Part shown: piece after piece, positions 1-9,216 of the stretch
Numbering within the stretch: position 1 is the stretch's first letter
Layout of the letters: the number at the start of each line of letters is the position of its first letter
Source of the DNA: a virus
Taxonomy: Duplodnaviria; Heunggongvirae; Uroviricota; Caudoviricetes
DNA length: 9,216 bases
Reading direction: 5' to 3' (one strand)
Virus record (IMG/VR): IMGVR_UViG_641736222_000030
Span: 1 to 9,216 of that record
Program-made: the position numbers and the translations under genes
The notes under the pieces: model-generated
The model's input: only the letters and a program-made list of their open reading frames with translations
The model's database searches: none
What the model was told of the DNA's origin: nothing

Positions 1-1239
1 ATGAGCAGGGCAATTCATAGACTTAGCGACACTCTTTTACGAAAATTAAGCGGATCACCAACCACAAAAAGCACCTTTTTTAATGATGGTGGCAACCTTA
101 GCGTAAGGCATTCAACCAATGGCCTGTTAACCTGGTATTTCACTTACAGGGCTGGAACTGGTAGGCAGATATCACCGGAACGTCTGAGGCTGGGCAATTA
201 TCCCGATCTGAGCCTGAAAGCTGCCAGGGAAAAAGCGGCACAGTGTCGCGCCTGGCTGGCTGAGGGGAAAAATCCGCGCTATGAACTTAATCATGCTGTA
301 CAGGACGCGTTAGCCCCCGTGACGGTTAAGGAAGCGCTCACTTACTGGCTTGAATCGTACGCAAAGGAAAAGCGCACTGACTACGAATCACTGAAAAGCC
401 GGATCAATAAACACATAATTAGCCAGATTGGCGCTATGCCACTGGAAAAATGCGAGCTACGCCACTGGCTGGCCTGTTTTGACCAGCTTGCTAAGCGTAA
501 TCCGGTATCAGCCGGATTTTTGCTACAGGTATGCAAACAGGCGCTTAAGTACTGCCGAAAACGACGATACGCAATCAGCAACGTTCTTGATGATATGGTT
601 GTCGGTGATGTTGGGAAAAAAGCAGAAATAAGCGAGCGCGTACTAACAAACAAGGAGCTTGGGGAATTACTACGCGCCCTGGATGAAAAAATTTACCCAC
701 CGTACTACAGCGCCCTGATTCGCCTCCTGATTGTCTTCGGATGCCGTACCACTGAGCTAAGACGCTCTGAGGTCCAGGAATGGGATTTTAAAGAAATGCT
801 CTGGACCGTGCCGAAAGAACACAGCAAAACGAAGGTAGCAATATTCAGGCCAATACCGGAAGCGATCTTGCCGTTTGTCATGAAGCTGGTGGAGCAGAAC
901 AGGCACACGGGATTATTGCTCGGAGAACTGAAAGGGCAATCATCCGTATCAGAGTACGGAAGAACGGCACACAGACGCATTAATCAAGCCCCATGGACGT
1001 TGCACGACATCCGGCACACGTTTACAACGATGCTGAACGATTTAGGCGTTGATCCTCATGTAGTGGAGCAGCTAACCGCGCACCAGTTGCCAGGAATGCA
1101 ACGAGTCTATAATCACTCCCGTTATCTTGATGCAAAACGTGACGCTCTTAATCTATGGGGTGAGCGTCTCGAGCTTCTCCAGAACAATGATGAAAAAATC
1201 GTTGTTATGACCTCGCGAATTTACTCCCAAAATTCTTGA
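1..1239 (+). CDS. int: site-specific tyrosine recombinase, P4-type phage integrase (412 aa)
   Basis: Complete ORF. N-terminus (DGGNLSVRHSTNGLLTWYFTYRAGTGRQ) resembles the arm-DNA-binding domain of P4-family integrases; C-terminal catalytic domain has box I Arg (FGCRTTELRR), HxxR (LHDIRHTFTT) and a Tyr region (VYNHSRYLD). Confidence 0.93.
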   Translation: MSRAIHRLSDTLLRKLSGSPTTKSTFFNDGGNLSVRHSTNGLLTWYFTYRAGTGRQISPERLRLGNYPDLSLKAAREKAAQCRAWLAEGKNPRYELNHAVQDALAPVTVKEALTYWLESYAKEKRTDYESLKSRINKHIISQIGAMPLEKCELRHWLACFDQLAKRNPVSAGFLLQVCKQALKYCRKRRYAISNVLDDMVVGDVGKKAEISERVLTNKELGELLRALDEKIYPPYYSALIRLLIVFGCRTTELRRSEVQEWDFKEMLWTVPKEHSKTKVAIFRPIPEAILPFVMKLVEQNRHTGLLLGELKGQSSVSEYGRTAHRRINQAPWTLHDIRHTFTTMLNDLGVDPHVVEQLTAHQLPGMQRVYNHSRYLDAKRDALNLWGERLELLQNNDEKIVVMTSRIYSQNS

Positions 1240-1388
1240 CAAATTACGGCTGTTTTTCTTCGGGAAAATAGCCTTCTTAAAAAAATCGTCGAAGTTCGAC
1301 CAAAGTTCGTCGTTTTTTTATTTGTCAATCATCGAAAAAATTGAAATTCACTCTCCTGAATCCTTATTCTCTGTTTCTTGATTGTTCC

Positions 1389-1437
1389 AACACCTGATGG
1401 TTTATCTATTTGTTTTTAATGAGGTAATTCAGGTGTT
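1389..1437. repeat. perfect 9-bp inverted repeat AACACCTGA / TCAGGTGTT, 31-bp AT-rich spacer, in int-alpA intergenic region
   Basis: Read directly: AACACCTGA at 1389-1397, its reverse complement TCAGGTGTT at 1429-1437. Candidate operator or recombination-directionality site; function not established. Confidence 0.3.
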
Positions 1438-1649
1438 ATGCCAAATGACGACATTTTTTGTTGCGTCGCTTAAAAACTCGTGACACGATTTTAAACACTA
1501 ACGAGCTTCTACGAACCTTAGCGAACAAAGCCTTTAGCATGGTTGTGTTTTTAATTTAAGAGGTGAAAAAGAATCTAAGTAATATCCGATCTTATATATC
1601 TACAGCTAAGAGAAAAGTTTATATACGTAATTTTTATGTAGGTTTTTGT

Positions 1650-1859
1650 ATGCGTGAAATAAATGAAGATCGTGTAATCCGCGAAAAAGAATGCAGAGAG
1701 CTAACAGGCGTTTGCCGCACAACTCGTTACGAGATGGAAAAGCAGGGCCGCTTCCCCTCACGTATCAGTCTTGGCGGTCGTTCTGTTGGCTGGGTTAAGT
1801 CTGAGGTTATGGAATGGGTTAAAAGCCGGGATCGTATTAATTCAGGTAAGGCAGCGTAG
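1650..1859 (+). CDS. alpA: AlpA-family (phage-type MerR-like HTH) transcriptional regulator, 69 aa
   Basis: Translation MREINEDRVIREKECRELTGVCRTTRYEMEKQGRFPSRISLGGRSVGWVKSEVMEWVKSR matches the AlpA pattern (TG-x-SR-x-T-x-Y, FP-x-x-LG-x-RSV-x-W, SEV-x-x-W). ATG at 1650 chosen over the ORF-track GTG at 1563 because AlpA proteins are about 70 aa; the ribosome-binding site is weak (AGG about 8 nt upstream). Confidence 0.85.
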   Translation: MREINEDRVIREKECRELTGVCRTTRYEMEKQGRFPSRISLGGRSVGWVKSEVMEWVKSRDRINSGKAA

Positions 1860-1872
1860 GGGGAACATATGA

Positions 1873-1905
1873 CACATAAAACAAAGGCGACCTGTGGCGG
1901 TCGCC
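1873..1905 (-). terminator. hairpin GGCGACC-N6-GGTCGCC followed on the minus strand by TTTGTTTTAT; putative intrinsic terminator for the divergent RHH gene
   Basis: 7-bp stem 1886-1892 / 1899-1905. The T-tract exists only on the minus strand (plus 1874-1885 acataaaacaaa). Sits about 90 nt past the RHH stop on that strand. Confidence 0.4.
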
Positions 1906-1993
1906 AATGGGAAAACACTCAACATAAGCCCGAACATCATAGCGATTTGCTGTCTGGTGGGCAATGTGCTCAGTGTGCTGGCTTGCTGGTGGA

Positions 1994-2173
1994 CTATTCC
2001 TGCTCTTTGGCCTTGCGGCGCTGGCGGCGTTTGATTTCGCCTTTAACGGCAGTAACTATAAATTGCGCTTTGCTTTCACCTTCATCTAAATTTTTTTCTA
2101 AGTCTGCAACAACATCATGCGGGAATCTGGCATTTAACTGTTGCGACTTATTATTTGTTGAACCTGTTGCCAT
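1994..2173 (-). CDS. ribbon-helix-helix (CopG/Arc/MetJ-like) DNA-binding protein, 59 aa
   Basis: Minus-strand ORF MATGSTNNKSQQLNARFPHDVVADLEKNLDEGESKAQFIVTAVKGEIKRRQRRKAKEQE: N-terminal beta-strand (QQLNARFPHDVV), helix, then G-E-S-K helix N-cap, and a basic tail. Start at the internal ATG (plus 2171-2173) with RBS AGAGAGGA 7 nt upstream. The competing + strand reading here is Cys/Trp-rich and not protein-like. Confidence 0.6.
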   Translation of the reverse strand: MATGSTNNKSQQLNARFPHDVVADLEKNLDEGESKAQFIVTAVKGEIKRRQRRKAKEQE

Positions 2174-2189
2174 TACTGAATCCTCTCTA

Positions 2190-2290
2190 AGTTGGTGCGA
2201 TTCAGTATACACAAAAAAAATTCAGAGAAAAGGCTTGAAGTGCGATTCACTTGCTGATAGGTTAAAAACAGATGGTGCGATGCACCAAAT
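2190..2290. promoter_or_regulatory. divergent promoter/operator region with three direct repeats of GTGCGATTCA
   Basis: GTGCGATTCA at 2195-2204 and 2240-2249, plus GTGCGATGCA (one mismatch) at 2275-2284. Minus-strand -10-like TATACT (plus 2204-2209) overlaps repeat 1; plus-strand TTGAAG-17 bp-TAGGTT (2235-2263) has repeat 2 in its spacer. Confidence 0.4.
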
Positions 2291-2363
2291 AACAACGCCC
2301 CGCAGTGGTGGCACACATGCAGGGCGTCTAACAACCAACGATAGCAACAGTATCGAGGTAGCT

Positions 2364-2570
2364 ATGAGAAATCATACCACACACCCGCAAGGGCGGGACT
2401 CGCACAACCTGAATAAATACATCTGGCGTTTTATCGCCCTGAGCACGGCACAACCGCGCGTGATTACCATTGAGGCCACCAGCGAACAGGAAGCACGCCA
2501 GCAATCTCCGGCTGGCTGCGTGATGGTATTCGCTGCCCGTATTCGTCAGGGGGAAACCTATGCACAATAA
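2364..2570 (+). CDS. hypothetical small protein, 68 aa (first gene of coupled cassette)
   Basis: C-terminal 68 codons of ORF 1869-2570, beginning MRNHTTHPQGRDSHNLNKYIWRFIALSTAQ. ATG at 2364 preceded by GAGG; an alternative ATG at 2280 has a poorer RBS. Stop overlaps the next gene's start. No family recognised with confidence. Confidence 0.5.
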   Translation: MRNHTTHPQGRDSHNLNKYIWRFIALSTAQPRVITIEATSEQEARQQSPAGCVMVFAARIRQGETYAQ

Positions 2571-2784
2571 AACCACACCGGACGCAACCGCCGCCGCACT
2601 CACTACACTGATGCACGCGCTGATTGATATTTCTGTTATTGCTGACAGGGCGCATAAACACGCAGCCAGAGAATCAGAATGCATCTTCCATTATTTAGCA
2701 TTTGTGCAGCTAAAAGCCGATCAGGCACTGGATAAGGCCGGAAAAATTATCATGGCTGATGTGCAGGAGGTGCACCATGCATAA
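2560..2784 (+). CDS. hypothetical small protein, 74 aa
   Basis: ORF beginning MHNKTTPDATAAALTTLMHALIDISVIADR. RBS GGGGGA upstream; 11-nt overlap with preceding gene and 8-nt overlap (ATGCATAA) with the following gene. Confidence 0.6.
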   Translation: MHNKTTPDATAAALTTLMHALIDISVIADRAHKHAARESECIFHYLAFVQLKADQALDKAGKIIMADVQEVHHA

Positions 2785-3142
2785 CCTGTCAATTTCTGAC
2801 CTTAACAGCATTCAGTTTGACGAGAAATTTACCGGGCAGTTGCTGGTCAATGTGGAGAACGGGCGCATAGTGCGTAATTATCACCTGCCGGATGGTGCAA
2901 TTGCCGGAAGCGTTGAAGCATTGCTGGAACTGGCGGAACGTGCGCGACTGATTAAGCCGTCAACGAGCCATCACGATGATGATCTGCATTTTACCGGATG
3001 TATGGTGAGTCACTACGAAAACGGCGTCGAGGTATCCTGCGAACGGCTGCGTGATGATTGCTGTTTCGGCACACTGCCGGAATTTATCGAGTTGCTGACC
3101 AGTTGCGGTTATCATGTCATTCAGGGGGGTAAACATGCGTGA
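2777..3142 (+). CDS. hypothetical protein, 121 aa, Cys/His-rich C-terminal half
   Basis: Start at ATG 2777 with consensus RBS AGGAGG (the ORF-track start 2759 has none). C-terminal 50 aa carry Cys75, Cys88, Cys95, Cys96, Cys110 and several His, suggesting metal binding. No family recognised. Confidence 0.65.
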   Translation: MHNLSISDLNSIQFDEKFTGQLLVNVENGRIVRNYHLPDGAIAGSVEALLELAERARLIKPSTSHHDDDLHFTGCMVSHYENGVEVSCERLRDDCCFGTLPEFIELLTSCGYHVIQGGKHA

Positions 3143-3368
3143 TGATCGTTTTAATTCCCTGAAACAGGAATTTTCCGGCGTTCCTGATGATGCGGCTGAT
3201 GCGCTTTCGTCAATGCCAGAGCTTATTAGAGCGGCTTTTTTCTTACTTTCCACGAGAGAATATAAATCAACGGGGCTTGATGTACTGAATATCGCCGCCG
3301 ATTATGCGGAATATGTGGCAGAGGCGCGTTATAGAAGAAAATTTCCTGAGGATGTAAGCCATGCGTGA
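3135..3368 (+). CDS. hypothetical small protein, 77 aa
   Basis: Start ATG 3135 after GGGGGG RBS; the junction with the previous gene reads ATGCGTGA (start embedded 5 nt before upstream stop). Translation begins MRDDRFNSLKQEFSGVPDDAADAL. Confidence 0.6.
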   Translation: MRDDRFNSLKQEFSGVPDDAADALSSMPELIRAAFFLLSTREYKSTGLDVLNIAADYAEYVAEARYRRKFPEDVSHA

Positions 3369-3594
3369 TATTTACCACCAAACAATAGACCGCGCATTTC
3401 TTGCACTTTCTCACAGTGAAAACATGATGGAAATATTTCGCATATGGCTTGAAACACTTGGCGACAATGAACGCGACAAACAAAAATCAAGAATTGCCAC
3501 GGCATTAATAACGCTTCTTGAGCCTGTAATAATGGAACTGCAAGAAATAGATCTATTGCACGACAGATATAAAGAACAGCACACCGGAGAATAA
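3361..3594 (+). CDS. hypothetical small protein, 77 aa
   Basis: Same ATGCGTGA overlap junction as the previous gene; RBS GAGGA. Translation begins MRDIYHQTIDRAFLALSHSENMMEIFRIWL, predicted helical. Confidence 0.6.
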   Translation: MRDIYHQTIDRAFLALSHSENMMEIFRIWLETLGDNERDKQKSRIATALITLLEPVIMELQEIDLLHDRYKEQHTGE

Positions 3595-3599
3595 AAATA

Positions 3600-3899
3600 A
3601 TGAAACTTAAATATTCTGGCTTAACTGCCAGTGGCAACACTCACCCTAAATTTACGCGCGGTGATATTTACCGCGACCAGTACGGCGGCACGGTAATGAT
3701 TAAGGGCGTGGAAGAACGGCGCGTAACCTACCGCCGTGAAGGTTACGAATATGATTGCGTGATGCCTGTTTATCAGTTCCGGCGTGATTTTTCTCTGGTA
3801 CAGACCGCGCCGCATAACGTGCCCACCAGCAACGCCAGGGCACGGGCAAACATCCAGAAGCTGAAAACCATGATTAACGGATTCAGGGGTAAAAAATGA
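3600..3899 (+). CDS. hypothetical protein, 99 aa, coupled to replication gene
   Basis: RBS GGAGA 9 nt upstream; stop overlaps the primase start as ATGA (3896-3899). Basic protein beginning MKLKYSGLTASGNTHPKFTRGDIYRDQYGG. Confidence 0.6.
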   Translation: MKLKYSGLTASGNTHPKFTRGDIYRDQYGGTVMIKGVEERRVTYRREGYEYDCVMPVYQFRRDFSLVQTAPHNVPTSNARARANIQKLKTMINGFRGKK

Positions 3900-5650
3900 A
3901 ACTGGCACCGAACGTAAAACAGCAGTCACGCGGCATAAAACACAAAGAAACAGAAGTCATTATTTTTGCGGGTAGTGATGCCTGGGCACACGCGAAACAA
4001 TGGCAGGAACATGATGCGCGTATGGCCGGAGATAATGAGCCTCCTGTGTGGCTTGGGGAGCAGCAGTTATCAGAACTGGATAAGCTGCAAATTGTGCCGG
4101 AAGGCAGAAAATCCGTGCGCATATTCAGGGCCGGATATCTTGCGCCAGTAATGATAAAGGCGATTGGCCAGAAGCTGGCGGCGGCAGGCGTACAGGATGC
4201 AAATTTTTACCCTGATGGTATGCACGGTCAGAAGGTGGAGAACTGGCGCGAATATCTGGCCCGTGAGCGCCAGAATCTTTCTGATGGTCTGGTCATTGAG
4301 CTTCCGGTAAAGCAAAAGGCGCAACTTTCGCAGATGGCGGACAGTGAGCGCGCGCAGCTGCTTGCCGATCGCTTTGATGGCGTTTGCGTACATCCTGAAA
4401 GTGAAATCGTTCACGTATGGCGTGGCGGGGTATGGTGTCCGGTCAGCACAATGGAACTGAGCCGCGAAATGGTGGCGATCTATTCAGAGCACAGGGCCAC
4501 TTTCAGCAAGCGCGTAATCAATAACGCCGTGGAAGCGTTAAAAGTTATTGCCGAACCAATGGGCGAGCCGTCCGGCGATTTGCTGCCGTTCGCCAATGGT
4601 GCGCTTGACCTGAAAACGGGGGAATTTTCCCCGCACACGCCGGAGAACTGGATCACCACGCACAACGGCATTGAGTACACGCCACCAGCACCAGGGGAGA
4701 ACATCCGCGATAACGCGCCAAACTTTCATAAATGGCTTGAGCACGCAGCCCGAAAAGACCCGCGCAAGATGATGCGTATATGTGCCGCGCTGTACATGAT
4801 TATGGCGAACCGGTACGACTGGCAGATGTTTATTGAGGCCAGCGGAGACGGCGGGAGCGGTAAAAGTACATTCACACACATAGCCAGCCTTCTGGCAGGG
4901 AAACAGAACACGGTAAGCGCTGAAATGACATCGCTTGATGATGCTGGTGGACGTGCGCAGGTTGTCGGGAGTCGTCTTATCGTCCTGGCAGACCAGCCGA
5001 AATATACAGGCGAAGGAACGGGCATCAAGAAAATCACGGGCGGCGACCCCGTGGAAATAAACCCGAAATATGAAAAGCGTTTCACGGCGGTAATCAGGGC
5101 GGTGGTGCTGGCGACCAATAATAACCCGATGATATTCACCGAACGGGCCGGAGGTGTGGCACGTCGTCGCGTGATTTTCCGTTTCGACAATATTGTTAGT
5201 GAGGCCGAAAAAGACAGGGAACTACCGGAAAAAATTGCGGCTGAAATCCCCGTCATTATCCGCCGCTTGCTGGCGAACTTTACCGACCCTGAAAAGGCGA
5301 GGGCTTTACTACTGGAACAGCGTGACGGTGATGAAGCACTGGCAATAAAGCAACAGACGGATCCGGTTATTGAGTTTTGCCAGTTCCTGAATTTTCTGGA
5401 GGAAGCGCGCGGCCTGATGATGGGTGGCGGTGGTGATTCAGTGAAGTACACGACCAGGAACAGCCTTTACCGCGTCTATCTGGCGTTTATGGCATACGCA
5501 GGCAGGAGCAAACCGCTAAACGTGGCTGAGTTCAGCAAGGCCATGAAGCCAGCGGCGAAAGTTTACGGGCATGAATATATTACGCGAAAAGTTAAGGGAG
5601 TAACGCAGACCAACGCAATTACAACAGACGATTGCGACGCGTTTTTATAA
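3896..5650 (+). CDS. replication protein: P4-family primase C-terminal (D5_N-like) region plus SF3 helicase, probable C-terminal ori-binding region (584 aa)
   Basis: Motif LPFANGALDLKTGEFSPHTPENWIT (aa 230-255) is typical of the region preceding the helicase in P4-alpha-like proteins. Walker A GDGGSGKST (aa 317-325, nt 4844-4870), Walker B RLIVLADQ (aa 360-367), motif C VLATNNNP (aa 404-411). The N-terminal ~190 aa is not confidently a primase catalytic domain. Confidence 0.92.
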   Translation: MKLAPNVKQQSRGIKHKETEVIIFAGSDAWAHAKQWQEHDARMAGDNEPPVWLGEQQLSELDKLQIVPEGRKSVRIFRAGYLAPVMIKAIGQKLAAAGVQDANFYPDGMHGQKVENWREYLARERQNLSDGLVIELPVKQKAQLSQMADSERAQLLADRFDGVCVHPESEIVHVWRGGVWCPVSTMELSREMVAIYSEHRATFSKRVINNAVEALKVIAEPMGEPSGDLLPFANGALDLKTGEFSPHTPENWITTHNGIEYTPPAPGENIRDNAPNFHKWLEHAARKDPRKMMRICAALYMIMANRYDWQMFIEASGDGGSGKSTFTHIASLLAGKQNTVSAEMTSLDDAGGRAQVVGSRLIVLADQPKYTGEGTGIKKITGGDPVEINPKYEKRFTAVIRAVVLATNNNPMIFTERAGGVARRRVIFRFDNIVSEAEKDRELPEKIAAEIPVIIRRLLANFTDPEKARALLLEQRDGDEALAIKQQTDPVIEFCQFLNFLEEARGLMMGGGGDSVKYTTRNSLYRVYLAFMAYAGRSKPLNVAEFSKAMKPAAKVYGHEYITRKVKGVTQTNAITTDDCDAFL

Positions 5651-5661
5651 TTTTTTGTAAA

Positions 5662-5890
5662 AGCCCTCTACCCCATCTACCCGAATGAAATAAATACATA
5701 TTATTCAACATGATAAGTGGGTAGAGGGCCAGGTAGAAGGCTAATAAAAGCTCTCTACCTCTTCTACCTGATTTTATCAGTTTCAGGTAGCAGGGTAGAC
5801 GGCAGGTAGAGGAGCCCCAAAAGCTATCTACCCGCTGAAAGCCTCGCCATTACTGACATGATGAGCATTCGGGTAGATGGGTAGAGGGGG
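5662..5890. repeat. iteron array: putative origin of replication of the element
   Basis: Eleven exact copies of GGTAGA/TCTACC plus one GGTAGC variant. TCTACC at 5667, 5676, 5754, 5763, 5827; GGTAGA at 5720, 5732, 5794, 5805, 5872, 5880; GGTAGC at 5786. Mostly in pairs 8-12 bp apart. Nested inverted repeats: 5664-5682 vs 5871-5889 (19 bp, one G indel), 5663-5673 vs 5719-5729, 5730-5739 vs 5761-5770. AT-rich segment at 5683-5718. Lies directly 3' of the helicase gene. Confidence 0.55.
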
Positions 5891-5934
5891 GGGAGGCACA
5901 ACTAAAAACTTTTTAAACGAGGGGGTGAAAATAA

Positions 5935-6249
5935 ATGCGCATACATCAAAATCACTTAACAAACATGCCAGCCGAAAACATGAATCAGGGGCGACAAATG
6001 ACCAAAATTCGCAGAGACAGAACAGAGCCAAAATATAAAGCGTTAGACATGACTGAGCATACCTTAAAGGTGGCAATCAGAACGATAGACCGCCATGCGG
6101 GGGAAGGATACGCGAAAGCACATCCCGACCTGATAAGCGCATTCATGACCACGACGGCGGCAAACTTTGCCACGCTGACAGAACGGGAGATTGCCGAAGC
6201 GGAACAGGTAACAACCATCAACATTAAAACCGGAGAGGTGGAATCATGA
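5935..6249 (+). CDS. hypothetical protein, 104 aa (start uncertain; alternative ATG 5998 gives 83 aa), coupled to ssb
   Basis: ATG 5935 follows GAGGGGG; ATG 5998 follows AGGGG. Stop overlaps the ssb start as ATGA (6246-6249). No family recognised. Confidence 0.5.
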   Translation: MRIHQNHLTNMPAENMNQGRQMTKIRRDRTEPKYKALDMTEHTLKVAIRTIDRHAGEGYAKAHPDLISAFMTTTAANFATLTEREIAEAEQVTTINIKTGEVES

Positions 6250-6668
6250 CAGCACAGATAGCCGCTTACGGGCGGCTGGTGGCTGACCCACAGTTAAAGA
6301 CCACCAGCAAGGGTACACAAATGGCGATGGCGGGTATGGCTATCCCCCTGCCGTGCAGCCAGGCCGATGACGGAACGGCGACGATGTGGTTATCCGTCCT
6401 GGCGTTTGGCAGACAGGCCGACGCACTGGCAAAACACCGCAAAGGCGAGCTGGTGAGCGTGGCGGGTAACATGCAGGTAAGCCAGTGGACAGGCCAGAAC
6501 GGCGAAACGCGGCAGGGCTGGCAGGTTATCGCAGACAGCGTAATCAGTGCGAGAACGGCGCGACCGGGCGGCAAAAAAGGCCAGCAGGGGCAGGCTACTG
6601 ACGCACTGAACAGGGCAAAACAACAGGCGGGGAATGATGATCCGTACGGGGATAACATACCGTTTTAA
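6246..6668 (+). CDS. ssb: single-stranded DNA-binding protein (OB-fold), 140 aa
   Basis: Aligns by eye with E. coli SSB: IAAYGRLVADPQL vs VILVGNLGQDPEV; WLSVLAFGRQADALAKHRKGELVSVAGNMQVSQWTGQNGETRQ vs [44 protein letters not shown]; Gly/Gln-rich linker; C-terminal tip DDPYGDNIPF vs host DDDIPF. Confidence 0.85.
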   Translation: MTAQIAAYGRLVADPQLKTTSKGTQMAMAGMAIPLPCSQADDGTATMWLSVLAFGRQADALAKHRKGELVSVAGNMQVSQWTGQNGETRQGWQVIADSVISARTARPGGKKGQQGQATDALNRAKQQAGNDDPYGDNIPF

Positions 6669-6683
6669 GCAACGAGTGACAGA

Positions 6684-6708
6684 AGCCGGAGAAATCCGGC
6701 TTTTTTGT
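6684..6708 (+). terminator. rho-independent terminator after ssb
   Basis: 7-bp GC-rich stem AGCCGGA (6684-6690) / TCCGGCT (6695-6701), GAAA tetraloop, then T6 (6701-6706), 16 nt after the ssb stop. Confidence 0.7.
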
Positions 6709-6899
6709 AGGTACTCCTGGTGGGGGTGGCCTGTCCACGGGGCGGAGGGGCGCGGAAAAAGGCGCATTTTTTGATTTTTATGGCACCATCACCACCACTA
6801 TAAGTTATTGATATATTGAGGAATAAAAATTTTTAGTGTCGAATCAGGTTGTTTTTTGTTCATCACTGGAGCGTTCCCGAAAGCATTTACAAAAAAATA

Positions 6900-6944
6900 G
6901 GCGCAAAAAAAGCGCCCCCGATTGCTGTTACCGGAGGCGCTTTT
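6900..6944 (+). terminator. alternative-hairpin element with weak terminator, upstream of capsid operon
   Basis: GCGCC (6912-6916) can pair with GGCGC at 6900-6904 (7-nt A loop) or with GGCGC at 6936-6940 (extended by 6918-6920 / 6932-6934, 11-nt loop), the latter followed by TTTT (6941-6944). On the minus strand the first hairpin is followed by TATTTTTTT. Confidence 0.3.
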
Positions 6945-7025
6945 ACACGACAAAGGAGTTTTTATCGCCAGGATGACGAGTCTTAATACTGCTTCAATGG
7001 CAAAAATGCGTCAATAACTTTGCCT

Positions 7026-7065
7026 TTCTGAGAATAATCAGAAAAAACATAATCTGATTTTCAGG
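7026..7065. promoter_or_regulatory. palindromic TCTGA/TCAGA sites in the probable capsid-operon promoter region
   Basis: TTCTGA-gaataa-TCAGAA (7026-7043, perfect 6-bp arms) and TCTGA-ttt-TCAGG (7053-7065), 70-110 bp upstream of the 7136 start. Candidate activator or repressor sites. Confidence 0.35.
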
Positions 7066-7135
7066 TAGAAAATGATTTATCTATTACTTTTATCGATCAA
7101 TAATGATGCCCGTTAATCAAAACGGAGGCGGATTT

Positions 7136-7330
7136 ATGCCAGAGAACAACACCAGAAAGCCGGATAAAAGTGCCACGGTACACATAGACGCCGGAACTAT
7201 GGAGAAGATCGAACGCTATCAGCAGTTCATCAAAGATAATCACCCGGGTATGCCAGTGCCCACGAAAGGACAAATCACACGCAGCGCGGTTGAATACTGG
7301 TACAGGGCAACGTTAGGAGCCTGGCTATGA
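7136..7330 (+). CDS. small RHH-like protein, 64 aa, coupled to capsid gene
   Basis: Start ATG 7136 with GGAGG RBS 8 nt upstream (the ORF-track start 7103 has none). MPENNTRKPDKSATVHIDAGTMEKIERYQQFIKDNHPGMPVPTKGQITRSAVEYWYRATLGAWL shows a beta-strand (KSATVHID), helix, then G-Q-I-T-R-S helix N-cap. Stop overlaps the capsid start as ATGA (7327-7330). Confidence 0.55.
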   Translation: MPENNTRKPDKSATVHIDAGTMEKIERYQQFIKDNHPGMPVPTKGQITRSAVEYWYRATLGAWL

Positions 7331-9216
7331 AAACATGGTTTTCCATTAAGGCTATGGCAGATGTTGTACATGTGCGCATTTATGACGAGATCGGCGGGTA
7401 CGGTGTAAAGGCATCGGCACTTACTGACGAGATCAACGCGTGCGGTAATGTGTCTGAAATCCATCTTCGCATCCATTCACCTGGTGGCGACATCTTTGAA
7501 GGGCTGGCTATCTATAACGCCCTGAAAAATCATCCGGCAAAGAAAATTGTACACATTGAAGGCATGGCGGCTTCTATGGCCTCGTTTATTGCCATGTGTG
7601 GCGATCACATCGTTATGCCTGAAAACGCGATGATGATGATACATGCCCCCCGTGGTGTTACTGCCGGAGTGTCGGGCGACGTTCGCCGCTTTGCTGACCT
7701 GATGGACAAGCTGGGCGACACGATGGCGGAAACCTACGCCGGAAGAACGGGCAGGAGCAAACAGGAAATCACCGCCATGATGGAGGCGGAAACCTGGATG
7801 GATGGCAATGAGTGTAAGGCTAACGGCTTCGCAGATGAGGTTATAGCCGCGATTACAGCAATGGCCCGAATTGAATCAAAACGAATCGGAGATTTTTCAA
7901 ATATGCCGGAAAAAATTAAAAGCATGATCAGCCAGAAAACTACCAGTGGCGAACAGGAACGACTTAACGGCATCCGTGAATTGTTTGGCACGTTCAACGG
8001 AAGATATAACGACCTGGCTATAAGTTGTCTTGCTGATTCAGAATGTAGCGTTGAGAATGCACGCGAACGCCTTTTACTCGCTATGGGTAAAGAATCAACG
8101 CCAACAAACAAAACCACCCCCGCAAATCTTTACTACGCGTACACGGATAACGGCAACATAACCGGCGATGCAATGCGCCAGGGGCTTAATGCGCGTCTTG
8201 GTCACGAACGGGCCGAACGCGGTAATCCTTACGCCATGATGAGCCTTTTCGATATGGCACAGGCATCATTAACCCATCGTGGTATAAGCACGGGCAGCTA
8301 CGGCACACGCTCGCAGATAGTAAACGCGGCATTCACCCACAGCAGCAGCGATTTTACCGATATTCTTGCTGGTGGCGCTGAAAAATCAGTGCTTGCAGGC
8401 TGGGAGCACAGCGGCGAAACATTCCGCCAGTGGACGAAAAAAGGTTCCCTTTCAAACTTCCGGGAAGCCCGCCGCGTTGGTATGAATGGCTTCTCAACGT
8501 TAAACAAAGTGCCGGAAGGGGCAGAATATAAATACATCACCACCAGCGATCGCGGTGAACCCATCGCGCTGGCTACTTACGGGAATATTTTCAGCATTAC
8601 CCGCCAGGCGATAATCAATGATGACCTTGATCAGTTATCAACGGTGCCAATGGCTATGGGCCGTGCTGCATCAAGAACGGTGGGAAATCTGGTTAATCTG
8701 GTGCTTACAGGCAACGTAAAACTTTCTGACGGAATAGCGCTGTTTGACAAAAAACACAGCAACCTGATTGAAGCAGGACTGACAACACCGGGACTTAGTG
8801 CAGCACGTCACCTGATGCGCACACAGAAGGACAAAAATGGCGAAGTGCTGAATATTGCGCCTAAATTCCTTTTAGTTCCGGCAGCACTGGAAGATCGCGC
8901 GTTGCAGATGATTAACTCAACCGCACCTTTCGGGGCTGATAAAAACAGCGGGATCTTTAACCCGTATCACAAGCTACTTGATATCATCGTCGATCCCCGC
9001 CTTGATGATATCAGCGAAAAACAATGGTACATGCTTTCCGCACAGGGAACGGACACAATCGAGGTGGCTTATCTTGATGGCAATGACGAGCCTTACCTTG
9101 AACAGCAGGAAGGTTTTATCGTTGACGGCGTGGCCTGGAAAGTCCGTATTGATGCAGGTGTGGCAGCTCTGGATTATCGCGGTATGGTCAAATCAGGCGG
9201 GACAGATTCACTCTGA
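7327..9216 (+). CDS. fusion ORF: ClpP-like (S14) prohead serine protease domain, linker, probable HK97-fold major capsid domain (629 aa)
   Basis: N-terminal ~180 aa align with ClpP: IHSPGG vs INSPGG; GMAASMAS vs GQAASMG (Ser83, nt 7573-7575); MMIHAP vs MIHQP (His106). The C-terminal ~330 aa (from about aa 300) have the size and composition of a phage major capsid protein (FSITRQAIINDDLDQL, LLVPAALEDRALQ). No stop codon separates the two parts. Confidence 0.85.
   Translation: MKTWFSIKAMADVVHVRIYDEIGGYGVKASALTDEINACGNVSEIHLRIHSPGGDIFEGLAIYNALKNHPAKKIVHIEGMAASMASFIAMCGDHIVMPENAMMMIHAPRGVTAGVSGDVRRFADLMDKLGDTMAETYAGRTGRSKQEITAMMEAETWMDGNECKANGFADEVIAAITAMARIESKRIGDFSNMPEKIKSMISQKTTSGEQERLNGIRELFGTFNGRYNDLAISCLADSECSVENARERLLLAMGKESTPTNKTTPANLYYAYTDNGNITGDAMRQGLNARLGHERAERGNPYAMMSLFDMAQASLTHRGISTGSYGTRSQIVNAAFTHSSSDFTDILAGGAEKSVLAGWEHSGETFRQWTKKGSLSNFREARRVGMNGFSTLNKVPEGAEYKYITTSDRGEPIALATYGNIFSITRQAIINDDLDQLSTVPMAMGRAASRTVGNLVNLVLTGNVKLSDGIALFDKKHSNLIEAGLTTPGLSAARHLMRTQKDKNGEVLNIAPKFLLVPAALEDRALQMINSTAPFGADKNSGIFNPYHKLLDIIVDPRLDDISEKQWYMLSAQGTDTIEVAYLDGNDEPYLEQQEGFIVDGVAWKVRIDAGVAALDYRGMVKSGGTDSL

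Follow-up and report, generated by a model that had tools for sequence, protein, structure and literature searches.

The 9,216-nucleotide stretch analyzed here (the window; positions 1 to 9,216 of IMG/VR record IMGVR_UViG_641736222_000030) ends in a gene that joins a ClpP-type head-maturation protease, a helical linker, and an HK97-fold major capsid protein in one 629-aa polypeptide. This gene is a member of the already named Gifsy-2-type "tripartite capsid gene" family, which has its prototype in Gifsy-2. The island that carries it is an ordinary, classical cos-type Gram-negative E. coli PICI of ~10.7 kb, and the fusion is its only head gene. We lean towards reading the fusion as a satellite capsid-morphogenesis factor, whose subunit would enter or replace the helper's shell.

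The fusion gene is on the plus strand and has three parts. The protease domain (aa 1–185, 7327..7881) is a ClpP-fold (S14-like) prohead protease and carries the catalytic codons for Ser83 (7573–7575), His106 (7642–7644), and Glu155 (7789–7791). The linker (aa 186–300, 7882..8226) is helical in the secondary structure of the predicted model, with helices at residues 195–202, 207–221, 228–236, 242–255, and 278–291, and is a putative internal scaffold by analogy with Gifsy-2 and MD8. The capsid domain (aa 301–629 plus stop, 8227..9216) is an HK97-fold major capsid protein (Phage_capsid_4) related to Mu gpT. A preliminary description of this DNA had proposed such a polypeptide, with a ClpP Ser/His signature in which S83 is the nucleophile and a linker of ~120 aa. 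These proposals were borne out on testing: the ORF is intact, the N-terminus has the ClpP (S14-like) fold with catalytic Ser and His, the C-terminus has the HK97 fold, and the linker measures about 115–120 aa. The AlphaFold2 model, made using an alignment of 108 representatives of 50% clusters, has a mean pLDDT of 91. An earlier model (14 sequences, two clades) was set aside without a fold search because its mean pLDDT was 42. Purifying selection is strong, with a dN/dS of about 0.09 in each of the three domains.

The protein is a full-length match to NCBIfam NF045540, named [quoted passage not shown] (891.1 bits; the family cut-off is 475 bits), and matches phrog_133 at 2e-281. In Gifsy-2 the tripartite capsid gene is STM1034.3n. 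Its product has the same domain order as the window protein (ClpP protease, helical linker, HK97 capsid) and is 50% identical to it, collinear over the whole length, with the catalytic Ser and His shared. The Gifsy-2 fusion was described by Effantin 2010, as cited in PMC8538268, and the same kind of fusion was described in MD8-like Pseudomonas phages (PMC8508860); these and the Stx2a phage Stx2_95 share the Gifsy-2 architecture. The fusion is the sole capsid gene in the functional phages Gifsy-2 and Stx2_95. The novelty implied by the preliminary description was therefore overstated, given a curated family and a published architecture. Its statement that most phages encode protease and capsid separately is correct, since, of 1753 phage records that have a ClpP-like match, only 80 cover at least 80% of the fusion. 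Among the best 150 representatives of 50%-identity clusters, at least 142 are full-length fusions of 600–795 aa. No deposited phage fusion exceeds about 52% identity to the PICI copy. With a protein family that already has a name and a RefSeq accession and an island that is a standard E. coli PICI, the finding as submitted adds nothing new.

The remaining genes in the window are those of a satellite and confirm the int/alpA context noted previously. The first nucleotides of the window are the ATG of a 412-aa tyrosine integrase (1..1239, plus strand; Pfam Phage_integrase and Arm-DNA-bind_3; phrog_1). An AlpA-type regulator/excisionase of 69 aa follows (1650..1859, plus strand; Pfam Phage_AlpA, 9.8e-18); its ORF begins at 1563 in the program-made list, and the start at 1650 was preferred, as in the 69-aa call in relatives. 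A DUF4222 protein (3600..3899, plus strand; Pfam DUF4222, 1.6e-24) is directly 5' of, and overlaps, a 584-aa D5_N/DUF5906 (P4-type) primase-replicase (3896..5650, plus strand; Pfam, PHROG, and NCBIfam TIGR01613). Just 3' of the primase, a repeat search found at least eight direct and inverted copies of GGGTAGAGGG/CCCTCTACCC (5660..5890, no strand assigned). This is the probable replication origin, by analogy with the PICI ori, which is described at the same place (PMC6092414). Next are a 140-aa single-strand DNA-binding protein (SSB; 6246..6668, plus strand; Pfam SSB, 4.9e-15; phrog_44) and a small ORF (7136..7330, plus strand; phrog_4934, 1.8e-51) that encodes 64 aa from an SD-preceded ATG at 7136, or 75 aa from 7103, and is translationally coupled to the fusion. 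The small ORF has no PDB or Pfam match, and its sequence looks ribbon-helix-helix-like. Neither Rfam at gathering thresholds nor PADLOC identified anything in the window. The last nucleotide of the window is the end of the fusion stop codon.

Island content beyond position 9216 was inferred from relatives, the best of which is 98.6% identical over the whole window. The loci examined share the identical fusion (eight), share the identical primase (10), or belong to sister lineages (seven). The full gene order is integrase, alpA, accessory genes, DUF4222, primase and ori, SSB, a cos-like site, the small ORF, the fusion, a second cos-like site, and orf93. After the fusion, all 18 loci that share it or the primase in identical form have only the cos-like site, the 93-aa ORF, and ~0.75 kb of non-coding DNA, and the island ends ~1.3 kb beyond the fusion in relatives. 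The non-coding DNA is followed either by attR and then host clpS or by the rest of an interrupted prophage terL. The preliminary description had called for a search of this region for portal, terminase, and head-completion genes; none is present in relatives' islands up to the att sites, and the 25 related islands have no portal, TerL, connectors, or tails. In L022, which is collinear with the window and 98.6% identical, mapping against the K-12 empty site gave an island of 10.68 kb with a 21-bp att repeat, and attL is 168–188 nt 5' of the integrase start. On the chromosome, outside any prophage, the closest relatives of the window's integrase/primase backbone occupy the cspD|clpS site. Islands with the identical fusion are also found inside prophage genes (L003, L006, L007, L009, and L032). 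The island is common in Shiga-toxin-producing serotypes.

Two cos-like sites, A and B, flank the small ORF and fusion and are candidate helper-type cos sites, as judged from their sequence. Site A (6683..6794, plus strand) has a hairpin and T-run (6684–6706) and then a cosQ/cosN-like core (...CCACGGGGCGGAGGGGCGCGGAAAAAGGCGC...). The second copy starts 5 nt past the fusion stop in relatives, outside the window. The copies form a direct repeat with 71%–79% identity. The core is ~70%–72% identical to the cos region 5' of terS in a host lambdoid prophage, and identity is ~40% beyond the core, downstream. Two cos sites are documented in EcCICFT073 (PMC6739421). The terminator/promoter scan missed the hairpin and T-run that can be seen on the plus strand after the SSB gene, and for this reason we claim no late-cassette promoter. 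The window's lineage yielded no TerS or Rpp homologue. A sister lineage with 62% identity has a DUF1441/phrog_141 TerS-like gene. Orf75 and orf93 were considered as Rpp, but both gave no PDB sequence match even at E values up to 10 and fall in PHROG families that have no assigned function.

Gene content and organization are those of classical Gram-negative PICIs of the EcCICFT073 type (Fillol-Salom 2018; SatelliteFinder). Shared features are an integrase, AlpA, a primase with a 3' ori, one direction of transcription, a size of 10–20 kb, specific att sites (from L022), two cos(-like) sites, and a capsid-morphogenesis gene as the main late gene, with no tail, holin, portal, or head-tail genes in the 25 related islands. 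The window island differs in that its capsid gene is ClpP-fused and that no rpp or terS was seen in its lineage. Four of the five SatelliteFinder core components would correspond to "Type B." Helper-embedded PICIs (Tommasini, Mageeney and Williams 2023) are related through the fusion: the identical gene is in islands inside lambdoid-prophage terL (the lambda A cognate), co-oriented with the late operon, and these insertions agree with published A:Terminase sites, whereas the window backbone has its closest relatives on the chromosome. SaPIbov5 Ccm and the PmCI172 capsid homologue are, like the fusion, satellite-encoded HK97-fold relatives of a helper capsid protein, in islands that are likewise cos-packaged and otherwise reliant on helper head proteins. 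Ccm, however, has no fused protease and is 23% identical to its own helper's capsid protein, compared to about 57% here; size redirection is demonstrated for Ccm and hypothetical for the fusion.

In the role that we favor, induction by a lambdoid helper with the same type of head module would be followed by assembly of the fusion polypeptide via its capsid domain, with the linker serving as internal scaffold. The tethered protease would then cut off roughly the N-terminal 300 residues; both steps are suggested by the biology of Gifsy-2 and HK97. The satellite subunit would enter or replace the helper shell on the helper's portal, which is the least certain step. Helper terminase would fill this shell at the PICI cos sites, and helper connectors and tails would complete the particle. 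The gene would then follow a logic like that of SaPIbov5 Ccm and would not belong to a self-sufficient capsid-and-packaging kit. The unchanged transfer after deletion of the EcCICFT073 capsid gene, described below, weighs against this role, as does the fit of a tetramer of the 10.7-kb unit (about 43 kb) in a helper-sized head, which means that no small capsid is required; the genomes of Gifsy-2 and Stx2_95 are 45.8–46.3 kb. If the satellite builds its own shell from a single gene, the distinction between capsid-remodelling and capsid-forming satellites would become a continuum, and this 1.9-kb gene would be a compact self-processing capsid module with possible use in engineered transducing particles.

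The satellite copies differ from phage copies in the linker. The window protein is 629 aa, compared to 674–696 aa for phage proteins, and lacks about 30–37 Pro/Ala/Val-rich residues that phage proteins have between the protease and the helical linker. The absent segment maps to a loop at residues 203–206. At 115 aa, the linker compares to a median of 156 among 108 fusions, only one of which is shorter. Linker length was compared between 10 satellite-type and 56 phage-type loci, with a neighbor-joining tree; this statistic overstates independence because the ten satellite-type loci represent only about three clades. In two clades, satellite-type loci have a homolog of the small ORF directly 5' of the fusion; the 56 phage-type loci have none. 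Phage fusion genes have a portal gene upstream and decoration, connector, and tail genes downstream, while the window gene has neither and is in a satellite. A tentative extension, which we regard as possible, is that satellite-borne tripartite capsid genes are a distinct satellite-adapted form, with a tether ~30 residues shorter and a small satellite-only ORF as partner. With such a one-gene "capsid kit," a ~10-kb island could assemble a shell of its own, perhaps a smaller one, on a portal taken from the helper, with stolen terminase, connectors, and tails filling and completing it. Classical PICIs use the helper's capsids or remodel them, and cf-PICIs take nothing but tails; if true, this would be a "shell-only" strategy intermediate between the two, and it would span satellites with four unrelated replication modules in Enterobacterales, Pseudomonadales/Oceanospirillales, and Burkholderiales. 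A capsid gene is present in most Gram-negative PICIs, and the sole published knockout has no phenotype; the comparative results give a concrete handle on why, namely tight constraint in three domains, a systematically shorter tether than in phage copies, and a small satellite-only partner ORF.

That knockout bears on a somewhat unlikely alternative, in which the fusion was acquired from a helper's late genes and is retained as a working but nonessential backup, for instance in a helper-embedded PICI that interrupts the late operon or beside defective resident prophages, with no specific role in transfer or interference. In EcCICFT073, the one E. coli PICI tested, deletion of the capsid gene c1499, a possible member of the same family, left transfer and interference unchanged, and packaged DNA was all phage-sized (PMC6092414). 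Late-gene capture is described by Tommasini et al., who suggest that such genes serve as backup copies, and the identical gene occurs in PICIs within terL of prophages whose own fusion has an internal stop. Against this, the low identity to deposited phage fusions shows that capture was not recent, the dN/dS in every domain argues for constant use, and the trimmed linker and satellite-only partner ORF are found again in satellites whose backbones are unrelated.

We consider it improbable that the fusion is an interference factor, a subunit that co-assembles or competes with helper capsid protein and poisons head assembly as an anti-phage decoy without productive shells. Classical PICIs do interfere strongly with helpers, the capsid domain is 57%–58% identical to the helper's and so close enough to co-assemble, and Ccm-mediated redirection cuts helper titres a million-fold or more. 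A decoy, however, needs neither a conserved catalytic triad nor tight constraint on protease and linker. The known interference factor of E. coli PICIs is Rpp and not the capsid gene, and there was no match to a PADLOC defence model.

The "capsid-forming PICI lifestyle" suggested in the preliminary description, in which the full set of capsid and packaging genes (portal, connectors, TerS, and TerL) lies beyond the window and only tails are stolen, is very improbable. By definition, a cf-PICI of about 15 kb includes capsid, protease, portal, head-tail connectors, HNH, TerS, and TerL, and the SatelliteFinder PICI model uses portal and head-tail genes to separate cf-PICIs from PICIs (PMC10085698). 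Like EcCIEDL933 (Alqurainy et al.), the window has an integrase/AlpA/replication front end and encodes a major capsid protein and head-maturation protease, here in one polypeptide, and its own downstream DNA is unseen since it stops at the fusion stop codon. The island is nevertheless most probably not a cf-PICI, because close relatives carry no portal or terminase, and this reading was rejected on their gene content. Portal and head-tail adaptor/connector genes are absent from the window and from related islands up to the att sites, as is a large terminase with TerS and HNH, any adjacent terL being an interrupted host-prophage gene. In the 18 loci that share the fusion or the primase, the island ends soon after the fusion, and its size is 10.68 kb compared to 15.4 kb for EcCIEDL933.

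That the fusion is unreal or non-functional, either because an assembly or sequencing error merged two genes or because the gene is in decay, is effectively refuted: the architecture is rare a priori and one E. coli genome (H67) has split pieces annotated as "capsid" and "Clp protease," but a stop or frameshift between the domains, a possibility that the preliminary description had raised, is very unlikely, nearly all of the best cluster representatives are full length, Gifsy-2 and Stx2_95 are functional with no other capsid gene, the strength of purifying selection led us to reject decay, and the identical ORF is present in thousands of independent assemblies.

The protease/capsid fusion is encoded by an unbroken ORF of 629 codons on the plus strand, from the ATG at 7327 to the TGA at 9214–9216, with no stop or frameshift between its domains, as a preliminary description had placed it. 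An AGGAG ribosome-binding site lies 7 nt 5' of the start, and the start codon shares bases with the stop codon of a small ORF that precedes it (ATGA). Pfam matches were identified for CLP_protease (aa 42–174, 5.6e-33) and Phage_capsid_4 (aa 331–623, 8.3e-55), with a weaker match to Mu-like gpT. Alignment with solved ClpP structures places the catalytic serine and histidine at Ser83 and His106, and Glu155 occupies the ClpP aspartate position. The three-part architecture initially proposed, a ClpP-type Ser/His protease, a linker, and a capsid C-terminal half, is correct. Residue conservation and linker length were measured in a 108-sequence alignment of diverse fusions, in which Ser83 is kept in 106 of 106 aligned sequences, His106 in 107 of 107, and Glu or Asp at position 155 in 102 of 106. 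The catalytic residues are also unchanged across both lineages of phage satellite islands (PICIs) carrying the gene.

This fusion is already known, and the novelty implied for it gives way to several precedents. It scores 891 bits (cut-off 475) against NF045540, which NCBIfam curates for this very arrangement of domains ([quoted passage not shown]), and an identical protein, WP_000860401.1, carries that name in RefSeq. It is a full-length member of phrog_133 (2e-281). The 696-aa product of STM1034.3n, the Gifsy-2 capsid gene (Effantin et al. 2010, as cited in PMC8538268), is 50% identical and collinear over the whole length. MD8-like Pseudomonas phages have the same three-in-one gene, for which homology models based on ClpP and HK97 have been described (PMC8508860), and CF60a from this group is 48% identical to the window fusion. 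In two functional phages, Gifsy-2 and the Stx2a phage Stx2_95, the fusion is the sole capsid gene. Fusions of 600–795 aa make up 142 of the best 150 50%-identity cluster representatives in a library of 1.84 billion proteins. The arrangement is still a minority one, as first described, since only 80 of 1,753 phage records with a ClpP-like match reach at least 80% query coverage. The gene is almost certainly a Gifsy-2-type tripartite capsid gene that occupies the capsid-morphogenesis position in a classical cos-type PICI.

Genes in the element lie on one strand in the order tyrosine integrase, AlpA regulator, small accessory ORFs, DUF4222, P4/D5-type primase, iterons, SSB, small ORF, and fusion. 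The iterons, densely packed copies of GGGTAGAGGG/CCCTCTACCC in both direct and inverted orientation at 5660–5890, are directly 3' of the primase gene and presumably constitute the PICI replication origin. This gene set bears out the suggested int/alpA satellite context and, terS aside, matches the published definition of classical Gram-negative PICIs (integrase, alpA, primase-replicase, capsid morphogenesis, and terS; PMC10085698), 21 of 29 reference members of which have a capsid gene (PMC10111431).

The small ORF and fusion are bracketed by two cos-like copies of a 110–125 nt repeat, one just 3' of SSB (6683–6794) and the other 5 nt past the fusion stop, as seen in relatives (e.g., L005:11895–12006 and L022:15326–15440). 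In each copy, a G-rich core comes after a hairpin that has a T-run. Identity between this core and the cos region 5' of terS in a lambdoid prophage is 70–72%, falling to ~40% downstream of the core. This mirrors the cos1/cos2 pattern of EcCICFT073, with the core kept and downstream similarity lost; EcCICFT073 has two cos sites with phage-like cosQ/cosN and a different cosB, and needs a helper terminase (PMC6739421, PMC9026076). The element is probably packaged in this way, with inferred cleavage at the cos-like sites. Likely helpers are those lambdoid phages in which the head module reads terS, terL, W, portal, their own fusion, decoration, then Z, U, V onward. Islands with an identical fusion sit in terL of lambdoid prophages, dividing its ATPase and nuclease halves (L003, L006, L007, L009 ~2650–12800; L032:1601–11797), the same configuration as the helper-embedded PICIs of Tommasini et al. 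(PMC10111431). The ClpP-capsid fusion that belongs to the prophage itself has an in-frame stop in several STEC genomes (RefSeq "internal stop").

For the role of the gene in the satellite, our preferred but tentative reading is that it supplies a functional, self-processing shell subunit, which would enter or replace the helper's shell on the helper's portal, a logic comparable to that of SaPIbov5 Ccm (PMC6893505). The main rival, that the gene is a dispensable spare part, is less likely: when the capsid gene of an E. coli PICI was deleted, in the only such case published, no phenotype resulted, the PICI concerned is packaged in phage-sized heads, and four 10.7-kb units (~43 kb) would fit in a head the size of Gifsy-2's (45.8 kb). 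A decoy that interferes with the helper is improbable, and the conserved protease is less consistent with it.

The capsid-forming PICI (cf-PICI) lifestyle proposed in the preliminary description would give the satellite its own capsid. The whole window is collinear with its closest relative, L022, at 98.6% identity. Set against E. coli K-12, where the cspD-clpS site is empty, the L022 island is 10.68 kb, bounded by a 21-bp duplication; by these bounds the window starts 168 nt inside the left island end, and the L022 island continues for 1.28 kb past the window with a cos-like site, a 93-aa ORF (orf93), and non-coding DNA. The same ending occurs in all eight listed loci with an identical fusion protein, in all ten listed loci with an identical primase, and in 91%-identical and 62%-identical lineages. 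No portal, large terminase, head-tail connector, or tail genes were found in any of these islands. Portal and head-tail genes divide cf-PICIs from PICIs (PMC10085698), and cf-PICIs, according to their authors, encode capsid, protease, portal, head-tail connectors, HNH, TerS, and TerL in ~15.4 kb. Three of these defining features were looked for in the window and related islands and not found; the cf-PICI lifestyle is therefore not supported and can be effectively set aside.

An artefact or remnant has even less to recommend it and is effectively excluded, as dN/dS between the 629-aa and 628-aa fusion alleles is 0.09 overall (dS 0.54; protease 0.12, linker 0.10, capsid 0.07) and the catalytic residues are invariant. 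Nor was the fusion recently captured, because every deposited phage fusion is at most ~52% identical to it. Between islands whose flanks diverge by 1–3%, the fusion gene has 0–1 differences per 1890 nt, and a near-identical late cassette (window 6684–9216 vs L004, L015, and L003) is common to PICIs with different integrases and replication modules. In two comparisons the homology block begins exactly at the first cos-like site, 6684, which suggests module exchange there.

With the fusion neither a remnant nor a recent capture, satellite and phage copies were compared for systematic differences. The window linker is 115 aa versus a median of 156 in the 108-sequence alignment, where only one sequence is shorter and the protease and capsid domains of the window fusion are of typical length. 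We classified 80 loci from different species by searching them, in phmmer and hmmsearch, with enteric-phage seeds for portal, TerL, tail, integrase, and replication genes. Satellite-type loci were those without portal, TerL, or tail, with an integrase, AlpA, or replication gene, and with flanks long enough to judge. This yielded 10 satellite-type loci, with linkers of 114–128 aa (median 117), and 56 phage-type loci, with linkers of 117–176 aa (median 146.5). Linkers of 128 aa or less occur in 10/10 and 2/56, respectively (Fisher P = 3e-10; Mann-Whitney P = 5e-7), the 10 satellite-type loci being only about three independent observations. In a crude neighbour-joining tree with linker columns left out, satellite-type genes form approximately three clades: enterobacterial PICIs, Pseudomonadales/Oceanospirillales, and Burkholderiaceae/MAG. 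One representative of each distant clade was scanned with Pfam, and both are compact islands: L066 (integrase, P2-GPA-type replication protein, fusion, then host genes) and L096 (serS, integrase, PriCT-Toprim-AAA_25 protein, fusion, then host genes). The missing segment falls in a low-confidence loop of the predicted model (residues 203–206), in that model a tether between the protease domain and a helical region, which would leave the linker helices themselves retained. Satellite linkers are ~30 residues shorter than phage ones, and the missing piece is a Pro/Ala/Val-rich tether (fusion aa 194–212, window 7906–7962; loci L033–L112).

The small ORF directly 5' of the fusion and coupled to it (window 7103/7136–7330; L010:9795–10004; L066:9735–9995; L068:9678–9992) encodes 64–104 aa among loci. 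It is kept in the enterobacterial and Pseudomonadales/Oceanospirillales satellite clades and absent from 56/56 phage-type loci. Searches of Pfam and PDB gave no match, and its motif, VHLD...HP..P.P...QI.R.AV..W, looks ribbon-helix-helix-like when judged by eye from the sequence. The satellite-specific short tether and this partner ORF are the only new elements here, and they make the long-unexplained PICI capsid gene directly testable.

Relatives in Alphaproteobacteria (L104, L108, L109, L111, and L112) match only residues ~200–625, the linker and capsid. Their N-terminal domain is ~180 aa, with the ClpP Ser/His unaligned, and may be another kind of protease, or some other domain, joined to this capsid family. 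The 62%-identical sister lineage (L010:12171–12656, L011, L012, and L013) has an extra 161-aa DUF1441/phrog_141 gene between fusion and orf93, which the window lineage lacks; it resembles a small terminase subunit and may be an Rpp/TerS-type packaging-redirection gene. Within the window, phrog_2512 (154 positions) is divided over two overlapping ORFs, 2759–3142 (profile 1–73) and 3114–3368 (75–154), a split that may stem from a frameshift or be a natural pair of genes. An antisense 72-aa ORF lies at 1994–2212 (minus strand); near this position relatives encode a YlcI/YnfO-family protein (minus) and then an Icd-like cell-division inhibitor (plus; window ~2400–2790), and this stretch varies most between islands. 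In E. coli O145:H28 RM12581, the closest relative with a complete genome, the annotation lists SSB as a pseudogene interrupted by an internal stop (L001:18705–19115), while the fusion there is identical to that of the window; some replication accessories seem less well preserved than the late cassette.
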